A stretch of 63,878 nucleotides of DNA, counting the filler, from Candidatus Woesearchaeota archaeon (lineage in GTDB: Archaea; Nanobdellota; Nanobdellia; Woesearchaeales; CAZJJJ01), in NCBI GenBank assembly GCA_046538795.1. It is 3 parts of 3 records of this genome, joined end to end, with 100 filler letters (N's around TTAATTAATTAA, not from the genome) between each part and the next. Parts side by side here need not be neighbours in the genome. Positions count along the whole stretch, not along the records: positions 29,498 to 58,847 come from JBKHIF010000010.1; 2 more parts are not named here. The stretch is one strand, 5' to 3'. Below are positions 4,603 to 32,897 of this stretch, in pieces (position 1 is the stretch's first letter; every line of letters begins with the position of its first letter). A program made the translations under genes and the position numbers. The notes under the pieces were generated by a model. That model was not told where the DNA came from. It saw only the letters and a program-made list of their open reading frames with translations, and ran no database searches.

Positions 4603-4878
4603 ATGAAACAGGCACCAAAAGGCAAAGAGTTCCAGTTCTGCAACGGAGATTCTGCAAAAAGCTTCGGTCAGTTCGTAAATCTTGTGAAAAAACTTTCACC
4701 CGATGAATTTTCTCATCATGTGAATGCTGACAGAAATGATTTTCATAACTGGCTTGGCGAATGCATAAGTGCAGATGTTGCAGAAAGCATAAGAGAAGCA
4801 TCATCACATAGAGATGTTGTTGAAAAGCTTTCCGGACATGCTTGGGAAGAAAACCATAAAAGAAAATTCGATTATTAG
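4603..4878 (+). CDS. Small DUF5752-like protein
   Basis: F.FCNG...FSHHV...RNDFHNW pattern. SD-like GGGAGAGGT precedes ATG 4603. Confidence 0.6.
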   Translation: MKQAPKGKEFQFCNGDSAKSFGQFVNLVKKLSPDEFSHHVNADRNDFHNWLGECISADVAESIREASSHRDVVEKLSGHAWEENHKRKFDY

Positions 4879-4928
4879 AAATTTTTGTGATATTTTATTT
4901 TCTTTTTCTTATATTATTTTACATCACT

Positions 4929-5071
4929 GTATGATCAAAAAGTGAGCTCACGAGGATTACCACAAGATTTTTACTAAAATCTTGTAAAAAGTAGTCAAGT
5001 AGGGTATTCTTGCAGAAACCCTACGAAATGGAAAAATAGAAGTATAATCAAAAAGTGAGCTCACGAGGATT
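4929..5071. repeat. Duplication of the tRNA-Arg 3' end plus flank, with two hairpins between the copies
   Basis: ATCAAAAAGTGAGCTCACGAGGATT exact at 4934-4958 and 5047-5071. Hairpins ACAAGATTTT-TACT-AAAATCTTGT (4962-4985) and GTAGGGT...ACCCTAC (4999-5024). Confidence 0.9.
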
Positions 5072-5149
5072 CGAACCCCGATTAAGCGGTTGCTTCTCTT
5101 ATAACTTAAGATCCGAAGCCGCTTGTGCTATCCATTACACCATGAGCCC
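5056..5149 (-). tRNA. tRNA-Arg(TCG) with 22-nt canonical 37/38 intron (5091-5112)
   Basis: Acceptor GGGCTCA/TGAGCTC, anticodon stem AGCGG/CCGCT, strict BHB (CTTC/GAAG central helix, TCTTA/TAAGA outer helix). Confidence 0.93.
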
Positions 5150-5286
5150 TTATTAGTAAAAGAATCAATTAAGAAGTTTATTTAAGCTTTTTTAATTATT
5201 TTAAAAAATTTGACAACAGAAATCACATCTTCGACTAAGCTTTTAATTTCAACTTAAGTTAAAGACAAGCCCAAGCAACAATTTCT

Positions 5287-30844: not shown

Positions 30845-31122
30845 GCAATCACCTTTGCGTTTTTAATTGATAAGAAACATTAATTTATTTAAAAAATATG
30901 TTAATTCTGCAGGTTAAAACTCACTTTTCAAAATATTTACTTGTCGGTATTGTGCGAACAGGCGTCTGTGTATTGATATGTAAATGTCGCCATCAAAAAG
31001 CAGAAATAATATCGACATAATTATGTTTTATGCCGATTATGGTTTCTAAAACATTTAAGCAAAAATAAAAAAATCTTGTTCTTTTGAAAATCAAAAAGTT
31101 TTAAGCAAAAATAAAAGAATAT

Positions 31123-31632
31123 TTACTCAAAATCATCTTCAAGTACTTCGGAACTCTCACTTTTCATCATATTTTTGCTTAATTTCTCATTTTTCACGAT
31201 TTTCTGGAGCTCTTTAATGTATTTCATCGTAGTCTCCTGGTGATTATTTACCTTTTGGACTGTCTTTTCAAAGGCCTGTTCAAGGGTATTTCCGTTCAAT
31301 TTGTAGCCGATTATTACCTTTCCGTCCTTGATATAGCTTGTTTTTACGATTAAGTTAAGTGCCATCCAGCGTTTTAAGTAATCATACATGGTTTGCCGTG
31401 TAATCCCTGCAAAATAGCCCATTTCATCGACAGTCATCACTGATAATTCAGGGTTTTTTTCCCTGTTTGCACGCTTTGATCTTTCATATAATTCAAGAAA
31501 TGTCCTGTACATCTTGTCTGTTGAACCCTCTTTTCTTGGCGAAAGTCCTATCCTGTTTATGATTACTTTTGCAAGCTCTTCAGAATTAGCATTCATTCCT
31601 GGTTCATGATTTGAAAATATGATCTTTTCCAT
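31123..31632 (-). CDS. Winged-helix DNA-binding protein with C-terminal helical extension
   Basis: MTVDEMGYFAGITRQTMYDYLKRW..LNLI.K helix-turn-helix, wing IGYKL, amphipathic tail. GAGGTGA SD before ATG 31632. Confidence 0.8.
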   Translation of the reverse strand: MEKIIFSNHEPGMNANSEELAKVIINRIGLSPRKEGSTDKMYRTFLELYERSKRANREKNPELSVMTVDEMGYFAGITRQTMYDYLKRWMALNLIVKTSYIKDGKVIIGYKLNGNTLEQAFEKTVQKVNNHQETTMKYIKELQKIVKNEKLSKNMMKSESSEVLEDDFE

Positions 31633-31849
31633 GATATTCACCTCTGGATTCTGGTAGGGATCCTGGTATATAAATGTATCCATTTGGCCGACAATGAGAC
31701 AATTTGCAATGAGTTGGCTAAAACTGCCAATACATTTTAAGCAGAATAAAAATAAAGCCATTTCAGCCAATTTATTGATTCACAAGATATAAACCCTTAT
31801 AAAAACACCAATTTTTGATCATATTTGCCTGAAATCGAATACTTTTCAA

Positions 31850-32120
31850 AATATTCGGGATTGTCCCGATTCACCAAATTCTGAATTTTTGACATTTTCG
31901 CCAAAAATCCCGACAGTGTCGGCATTATCCCTTGCATTTTGGCATAATTCCGAATGAAGAGTTTAAGTGTCATTTACCCTGAAATGCAGATTCCACGCTT
32001 TTGTTTCCAAAAGCAGGGGTTTTAGGGGGGTATTGGATGTTGTTTTGACATAATCCCGACAGATTATTCTAGTATACTATTTTGGTACATTTTTAGAAAC
32101 ATTGAATTATGCCAAATAAA
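31850..32120. repeat. Array of palindromic and phased repeats, consensus about TTTGRCATAATYCCGACA, with G-strings
   Basis: TCGGGA-TTG-TCCCGA 31855-31869; CCGACA-G-TGTCGG 31910-31922; AATCCCGACAG at 31906 and 32052; TTTGGCATAATTC 31938-31950 inverted at 32104-32116. Confidence 0.75.
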
Positions 32121-32327
32121 GCGCGAAATCCCTCTATTTTAGGCCGTATTTTGGCAAGTTTGAAGCCCAGGTATTCATTTTGATAAAAGTCATTTTTTGA
32201 TAAGAAGCATCATGTCCTCTGATATTGAATTTCTTAAGCGTTATCAGCAGAGAATCCGGAATTTAGTTAACTTATCTTTGAAGCATTAAAAGAACCAACT
32301 TATAAAGAAAGATTTGTTTCAAGACAA

Positions 32328-32519
32328 TCAAAGCCTGTTTAGCTGCTCTTTTTGAAGCGACTTAATCTCAGACCTTAATTCTTTGATCTCATCTCTCAAG
32401 GCCTGATTTTCCCTTTGAAACTCAAGTATCCAGGCCTGCATCGTAGATTTAAATGTATTCATATCTTCACGTGCGGCAGCAAAAGATTTTTTCACATTCC
32501 GTTTAAATGTTGTATCCAT
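32328..32519 (-). CDS. Small coiled-coil protein
   Basis: 63 aa with heptad pattern ENQALRDEIKELRSEIKSLQ. Confidence 0.7.
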   Translation of the reverse strand: MDTTFKRNVKKSFAAAREDMNTFKSTMQAWILEFQRENQALRDEIKELRSEIKSLQKEQLNRL

Positions 32520-32778
32520 GCAGTAGTTAAATTATAACTTATTTAAATAGGTTTCGGTCTAAATGTTTTAAGCGTTGCTATAAAGTTTTGTTTGTGTTGT
32601 GTGCGTAAATGTTTTAAGCAAAATCAAAAACTTTTGACACCGTTATTCGCCACTTTACCTTGAGCAATTCGGTATAGTTTCGTAGTTCAAAAAACGACAC
32701 CTGTTTCATAAAACAACAACATGAGTCGAGACTATACGGACAATTGTTTTTGATAAAAATTTTGTTCGAAAGTGAGCG

Positions 32779-32814
32779 TTTTATTTTTTATTTTATTTTA
32801 TTTTATTTTATTTT
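32779..32814. repeat. (TTTTA)n AT tract
   Basis: TTTTATTTTTTATTTTATTTTATTTTATTTTATTTT. Confidence 0.85.
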
Positions 32815-32897
32815 GTATCACTTTTTGTGTTGATTAAAGAAATCATAGATAACATAAATAAATGGTTTTAAATATCAGCATTTCAAAAATAAATATT

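Follow-up and report, generated by a model that had tools for sequence, protein, structure and literature searches.

In the AspA-ParB-ParA system of Sulfolobus pNOB8, the dimeric winged helix-turn-helix (wHTH) protein AspA binds a palindrome beside its own gene and spreads over 200 bp, according to the available portion of its description (PMC5120986). A comparable arrangement is found in a Woesearchaeales genome, labelled G000 (Candidatus Woesearchaeota archaeon, GCA_046538795.1), in which an array of five pseudo-palindromic boxes, here termed the module, lies near the gene for a winged-helix protein, here termed A. The window analysed comprises 63,878 nucleotides, made up of three contigs of a metagenome-assembled genome (C45, C46, and C78) joined by N, and the locus occupies 1.4–3.3 kb from the start of C46, a 29-kb contig. 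The reading that we favor, with a probability of roughly one half, is that the module and A would form a wrapped nucleoprotein complex that serves as a centromere-like anchor or chromosome-organizing site.

Like AspA in the accessible part of the same account (PMC5120986), A is a winged-helix protein, in this case a predicted dimer, with a palindromic site near its own gene, where several dimers would cover about 200 bp. Unlike that system, no parB or parA is linked to A, and five sequence-defined boxes with a fixed spacer take the place of the one 23-bp site from which AspA spreads. AspA gave no match to A in sequence or fold searches. A second parallel is offered by SegB and segS of the Sulfolobales, where, in the excerpts at hand (PMC12139799, PMC5120986), each chromosome carries one full site near the gene for its binder, and the site may combine the functions of centromere and operator. 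The present locus differs in that it has no segA operon, the module can detach from the gene, and its distance from oriC is 10–33% of the genome as against 7.6% for segS. Because no motor is linked to them, A and the module are not members of the AspA or SegB systems.

Orc1/Cdc6 origins and WhiP/oriC3 likewise have repeats in a long intergenic region next to a gene with a wHTH, as far as the consulted sections report (PMC4010727). The module differs from an Orc1/Cdc6 oriC, since it has no origin recognition box (ORB), no AT-rich unwinding stretch, and no switch of strand skew. Autoregulators of the Ss-LrpB type are dimeric binders whose semi-palindromic operators are regularly spaced near their own genes. 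In contrast, A has no Lrp/AsnC domain and no regulon was found for it, and the module is independent of promoter position. With TrmBL2 of the Thermococcales A shares a wHTH followed by a long dimerization helix; however, A lacks the C-terminal domain and has one apparent specific site, whereas TrmBL2 binds genome-wide. A literature search on chromosome segregation, centromeres, or palindromic intergenic sites in Woesearchaeota, which took in few subscription journals, found no description.

A single-copy module accompanies gene A

A sequence-only reading of the window had pointed to the gap at 31633–32327 as an origin-like or centromere-like array of phased repeats. The nine motifs that it listed and its six GNCA-type half-sites all lie where it placed them, and 31633–32327 is indeed the longest gap between open reading frames of the window, also when alternative upstream starts are allowed (557–566 nt versus 479–482 nt for the next). 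Its 18-letter consensus described real repeats but was too narrow, with an exact copy only at 32044, two mismatches at 31938, and four at 30942. The repeat unit proper is 19 bp long and forms a pseudo-palindromic box. A matrix of this box, trained on 45 homologous loci with the present locus left out, identifies seven boxes here (12.5–23 bits), five upstream and two downstream of A. The principal features are as follows.

31123..31632, minus strand: gene A, whose 169-aa winged-helix product ends in a long dimerization helix and is the presumed box binder
31853..32061, minus strand: module of five boxes in the order S5-S4-S3-S2-spacer-S1, spanning about 200 bp, present once in the genome and its top cluster
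32043..32061, minus strand: box S1, 23 bits
31956..32042, no strand assigned: spacer of 87 bp, fixed length, with 10-bp AT/GC periodicity, 57.5% AT, containing the G-run at 32016–32030
31937..31955, minus strand: box S2, 18.7 bits, 106 bp from S1
31917..31935, plus strand: box S3, 20.1 bits, 20 bp from S2
31897..31915, minus strand: box S4, 12.5 bits, 20 bp from S3
31853..31871, plus strand: box S5, 14.7 bits, 84 bp from S2
30942–30960 (12.7 bits) and 30999–31017 (14.3 bits), no strand assigned: two boxes downstream of A; downstream boxes recur in homologues
31667..31693, minus strand: probable promoter of A read from the sequence, a TATA-like run (31667–31676) with an adjacent half box (31688–31693), a putative autoregulatory site

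Whole-genome scans reveal a sole cluster of boxes, at gene A, in each of three genomes: G000 (60 versus 13 for the next), G298 (65 versus 16), and G031 (83 versus 14). Training of the matrix included G031; G000 and G298 were outside it. The 6-letter core is found five times in the three spacers, where 0.23 copies would be expected for this genome. The same scans, together with a check of single boxes that found no shared target genes in these three genomes and hence no regulon, show that the motif is not a property of ordinary promoters. Since A is strongly kept and shared target genes are lacking, A appears to serve one site. Collapse of a repeat during assembly is excluded, because two public runs, either of which may be the source of the DNA, have contigs with the identical sequence at a depth equal to that of the flanks; contig depths in these runs are flat over 6 kb.

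At least one box is present at 43 of 46 nonredundant homologous loci, a count that is partly circular because 45 loci served for training. Boxes were not found at three distant homologues (L015–L017) in 700 bp upstream and 400 bp downstream. The period near two helical turns that had been read from the half-sites holds throughout the family: inter-box distances repeat at 21.2–21.4 bp (R about 0.56, where the null reached at most 0.24; 26 loci and 174 pairs, with 8 close relatives removed). A survey of spacing screened 69 loci and yielded 42 modules, at least three of them out of register, with search ranges of 100–124 and 84–95 bp. The distance from S1 to S2 is 105–109 bp in 36 of the 42 and 116–118 bp in the other 6, and that from S2 to S5 is 84–87 bp in 26 and 94–95 bp in 11. 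These classes suggest module variants that are one helical turn apart.

The spacers between S1 and S2, 87–89 bp long, have a mean identity of only 44%, yet the 10-bp alternation of AT and GC is kept. Periodicity exceeds the genomic 95th percentile in 18 of 33 homologous spacers, two out-of-register rows having been dropped, and the spacer of this genome ranks in the top 0.1% of 4000 genomic 87-mers. The G-strings at 32016–32030, cited earlier as an origin feature, are present, but they constitute one GC phase of the periodic spacer and are not part of an ORB. Alternation of this kind favors wrapping by archaeal histones at 30 bp per dimer, according to the part of the source consulted (PMC8096283). 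This genome encodes two histones, and Pfam histone matches occur in 57 of 64 genomes with a module.

A profile of the module (R1), built from 16 natural modules, was applied to 149 genomes that had been picked from 401 by completeness and family spread, 71 with A and 78 without. At E ≤ 1e-6 it matches 64 of the 71 A-positive genomes, once in each (66 at 0.01; at least one match is also a training locus), and none of the 78 A-negative genomes, where 13 give weak matches, the best at 4.9e-4. A strong match is thus absent from 7 of the 71. Most of the A-negative genomes tested carry the coiled-coil/wHTH gene B, found facing A in 22 of 47 loci. It is likely from this co-occurrence that A is the binder of the boxes. 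B is ruled out for this role: it is present in 346 of 401 genomes, most of them without the module.

Protein A and the placement of the module

In its model, A has a single winged helix and a C-terminal helix of 50 residues (predicted local distance difference test score, pLDDT, 90.5). A has 541 homologues and is conserved at 43–83% identity, and the expectation that homologues would be single-copy is borne out, with one copy in each of 119 of the 401 genomes of the order and every match at E < 1e-59. Named relatives are Woesearchaeota or Nanoarchaeota records, and a phylum-wide search, for which the number of genomes sampled from other orders is not shown, lists matches only within the order. 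These tallies, like those for B and for the related protein D, include a few unpublished genomes (G393 and G405 among them), on which none of the other results depends. An Aenigmarchaeota cluster with a feature score of 0.94 is a lead only.

A belongs to no family at the curated cut-off, and neither a Lrp/AsnC domain nor, in the model, an ATPase domain was found. Fold searches returned generic wHTH matches. The best is TrmBL2 (Z 7.6, root-mean-square deviation 3.5, 113 aligned residues), a score within the range of common arrangements, and no WhiP match is listed in Pfam, NCBIfam, or PDB for A, which has a single wHTH. A homodimer formed through the long helices is predicted with a score of 0.83, against 0.00 for the best control; contacts agree between runs to at least 98%, and pLDDT is at least 86. 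The mark used for such predictions is reached by 20 of 30 solved homodimers and by 1 of 23 monomers. The predicted homodimer would present two wHTH heads suited to a pseudo-palindromic box.

The position of the module relative to A is variable. Among the 64 modules, 44 lie less than 1 kb upstream of A, 7 lie 1.4–3.8 kb upstream with other genes in between, and 11 are downstream, one of them by 40 kb. The remaining 2 sit on contigs other than that of A, one through a split at a contig end and the other in G300, where A is without any box. Twelve of the 64 are inverted, none comes closer than 187 bp to the match of the A gene, and that of G362 is placed between convergent open reading frames. 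At least 19 of 64 are therefore downstream, more than 1 kb upstream, or detached, and the module is not tied to promoter position. One cluster of sites for a conserved protein, persisting wherever it is moved, argues that the site itself has a function; judged from these sequences, the module is more than a promoter operator.

The promoter itself may carry a different element. A full single box stands 30–130 bp before the start of A in 30 of 46 homologous loci, and only a half box is present in this genome. This separate box suggests that A acts on its own promoter. It also lends itself to an explanation that we consider possible but rather unlikely, in which looping from module-bound A dimers to the promoter box and the downstream boxes would set the level of A, in the manner of Ss-LrpB or a phage repressor, and the module would have no structural role. 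Boxes on both sides of A, the many modules within 1 kb upstream, and the ordinary regulator fold of A agree with such a long-range switch. It does not readily account for intact modules found 2–40 kb away from A, on its downstream side, in inverted orientation, or between genes that converge, and, as no other target gene has been found, it would require a strongly conserved regulator that regulates only itself. If the module is only a regulatory switch of this kind, it would be a modest curiosity.

Replication origin and strand skew

The sequence-only reading had proposed that A is either a chromosome-organizing factor, the branch that we retain as the favored reading, or a replication initiator, with no Orc1/Cdc6 nearby. 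Because the locus is near the start of a contig and the window joins separate contigs, the latter point carries little weight, and skew within the window is uninformative. Orc1/Cdc6 is present in 206 of 208 complete Nanobdellota genomes in the portion of the survey consulted (10.64898/2026.05.13.725050). That of this genome is on C37, with an origin of its own.

C37, about 1540–2600 (L001): oriC of this genome, ahead of orc1/cdc6 and DP1, where four ORBs (22–31 bits, ORB matrix) surround a stretch of 87% AT

The ORB matrix was derived from 81 ORBs at 33 orc1 loci, and the four best matches of the genome are all on C37. The layout of ORBs and AT stretch before orc1 recurs in most of the 33 loci, and its unwinding stretch includes a palindromic AT element that is conserved. 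Clusters of 19-bp boxes do not occur at orc1 loci, and one or two matches are found in 5 of the 33. Conversely, ORBs are not enriched upstream of A (best scores average 0.7 bits versus −0.6 in shuffles), and the idea that ORBs are hidden in the 87-bp spacer was rejected on the same ground. There is no AT-rich unwinding element between the boxes: spacers are 57% AT in 17 modules, versus 87% at the oriC of this genome, and the module as a whole is GC-richer than the genome (59% versus 65% AT). In nine genomes with both genes on one contig, orc1 and A are 109–336 kb apart. Lone strong boxes (22 and 20 bits) occur within about 16 kb of orc1 in G031 (C1:197337) and at L184, in genomes of one family, and lone near-perfect ORBs occur off the oriC cluster in G298 (C1:870429, 32 bits) and G031 (C1:202120, 28 bits).

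Raw cumulative GC, AT, and purine skews in G031 and G298 are dominated by gene orientation and were discarded as uninformative. Third-codon T–A skew corrected for gene direction was used instead, with a check for strand artefact (23 of 51 contigs of this genome positive), in six genomes: G031, G298, G114, G238, G013, and G287. Both single-contig genomes, G031 and G298, which each contain one 100-N gap and whose closure is not proven, display a single V-shaped skew with a sharp turn at orc1 (211 kb versus orc1 at 212–213 kb in G031; 469.0 kb versus orc1 at 468.4–469.6 kb in G298). The array lies 200–320 kb from orc1 in these two genomes, away from the skew extremum, and the skew runs unbroken through it. 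Locally, the skew flips at orc1 in G031, G298, and G114 (|z| 2.0–6.2); the orc1 of G238 shows no sign change, and G013 is uninformative there, with three genes on one side. At the module there is no sign change in G031 (−0.108 / −0.081), G013 (−0.315 / −0.296), G287, or G114; G298 gives z −1.9 at 30 kb, which is gone at 60–100 kb, and G238 a slight shift (z 2.2). The sign of the leading-strand T–A skew is opposite in G031 and G298, though they are of one order; skew in G013 is extreme, about 0.5 at third positions.

On these data a replication origin at the module is not supported. It is very doubtful, too, that the module is a second origin, dormant or conditional and rarely firing, for which A would be a non-Orc1 initiator resembling WhiP and possibly of plasmid descent. 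That the phased boxes form a unique array next to a wHTH gene present in one copy would suit such an origin, and oriC3 of Sulfolobus lacks ORBs and depends on WhiP, as stated in the accessible sections of its description (PMC4010727). Near the module, G298 and G114 show a skew close to zero, and the slight shift in G238 accompanies an orc1 without sign change. However, strong skew continues unchanged through the module in G031, G013, and G287, skew flips at orc1 in three genomes, the genome has an ORB-bearing oriC elsewhere, the module is poorer in AT than the genome, and A consists of one wHTH with no ATPase domain.

The module lies at 25.8% (G031) and 27.5% (G298) of the genome from oriC, which is mid-replichore rather than terminus. 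A timing element of the crtS or DARS type in this position was considered and dropped, for all 321 orthologues hold their distance from oriC (rho 0.63; 26% within 2 points).

Partner proteins, wrapping, and the chromosome

The genes around A and the module are of housekeeping type (PAC2, a methyltransferase, RpoL, UppS, and ribosomal proteins L1 and L10). Three further features of the locus deserve mention.

32328..32519, minus strand: gene C, a coiled coil of 63 aa with homology to the coiled coil at the N terminus of two linked wHTH families, D and B
31048..31111, plus strand: second family of boxes, each 18 bp long, here in two copies at a distance of 46 bp, with further copies at 31730 and 32607
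32779..32814, plus strand: simple pentamer repeat, at which the public contigs break

The (TTTTA)n tract at 32779–32814, noted earlier, is present, but it lies 700 bp outside the module and there is no evidence for its membership. The 63-aa coiled-coil protein, earlier proposed as a possible partner of A, fares better, as a member of a linked family. It is found near A in 11 loci, and in G233, G362, and G300 it stands beside a module that has departed from A. Alignment of C by hhalign gives 94.9% to D and 90.8% to B, though coiled coils can match nonspecifically. D occurs in 118 of 401 genomes. The notion that A (119 of 401) and D replace one another was rejected, since both are present in 44 genomes.

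Copies of the second box family at 31048, 31094, 31730, and 32607 flank A and precede C. The family is represented at 40 of 46 loci and at 7 of 15 B loci of A-negative genomes, and its best two matches in the genome are at this locus; B is a candidate binder. At 6 of the 15 A-negative B loci (L279, L280, L282, L283, L285, and L286), D is accompanied by its own tandem 10–11 bp array with a different core, and five of the six also have a gene for an Xer-like integrase. The present genome has no D proper; it has a coiled-coil/wHTH paralogue at C77:14414–15358, with a third kind of short-repeat array in the roughly 250 bp upstream of it. Three tandem MinD/ParA-like genes are found at C49:3229–5856. 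Elsewhere in the window, ARAGORN calls a tRNA with a four-base anticodon at 5055–5149, within the second-longest noncoding gap (4805–5286); it is possibly an intron-bearing or broken tRNA.

ArgR and PepA are architectural DNA-wrapping factors at cer. That A would wrap DNA in the same way, at an accessory or topological-filter site for a recombinase or at a roadblock to replication forks or SMC, is improbable. Fixed spacing and a bendable spacer would be apt for such a site, in 5 of 15 A-negative genomes the B locus has an Xer-like integrase gene as a neighbor, and the top, though generic, fold match of A is TrmBL2, which stalls SMC at dif in the available part of that report (PMC11840125). On the other side, the module is mid-replichore and not at the terminus, no integrase is recurrent beside A (47 neighborhoods) or the module (27 further loci), and Z 7.6 is a common value. 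A structured noncoding RNA or the relic of a mobile element, which the palindromes and the shifting place and orientation of the module might bring to mind, is already largely refuted by the lack of consensus pairs (0 in 16 sequences, one strand folded) and of an Rfam match for the module region, and by its occurrence in either orientation, as one copy per genome, among housekeeping genes.

The favored complex may be pictured as follows. One A dimer would occupy each box, and the spacing in steps of about 21 bp would place all of them on one face of the helix. The periodic 87-bp spacer would bend around a protein core and bring S1 next to S2–S5, and the resulting wrapped knob would act as the anchor or organizing site. 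Through the separate promoter box, A would repress its own gene. A conceivable further step is that the coiled-coil proteins C, B, and D connect the knob with a segregation or SMC apparatus whose genes lie elsewhere.

Several observations weigh against this picture. The 149 genomes are kin, and co-occurrence in them does not amount to 149 independent trials. About 70% of the order is without A and the module, so that their function must be dispensable or achieved otherwise. Modules within 1 kb upstream of A (44 of 64) are mostly in the same orientation, as regulation would have it. At 10–33% of the genome from oriC, the module is unlike most bacterial parS, for whose location the comparison is drawn from part of PMC12139799. 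No gene for ParA, an actin-like protein, or another NTPase is recurrent in the neighborhoods surveyed, and the MinD/ParA-like genes and SMC of this genome are on contigs other than that of the locus. Finally, no canonical histone was found in 7 of the 64 genomes with a module, the single-contig G031 and G298 among them. A canonical (90-bp) hypernucleosome is therefore not required as the wrapped core, and obligatory wrapping of the spacer by histones is a weakened proposal. G031 (C1:441959–442150) and G298 (C1:1013714–1013884) have only short histone-fold proteins of about 55 aa.

A more specific form of the anchor is quite unlikely. The module would then be an archaeal point centromere, in which two groups of boxes bracket a fixed wrapped spacer of 87–89 bp (the DNA of three histone dimers where canonical histones exist), and A, B, C, and D would assemble in the manner of a kinetochore to segregate or anchor the Woesearchaeota chromosome, with no ParA linked. 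If so, the coiled-coil/wHTH paralogues, which have arrays of their own, would represent one design in lineage-specific versions.

For the order, the comparison places the true oriC at orc1, with a clear ORB consensus and support from skew in three genomes. The module and A bear on the segregation and organization of small DPANN chromosomes. For in vitro tests that do not need the organism in culture, the pair offers a defined 200-bp DNA, a 169-aa candidate binder for which a dimer is predicted, and coiled-coil proteins as candidate partners.

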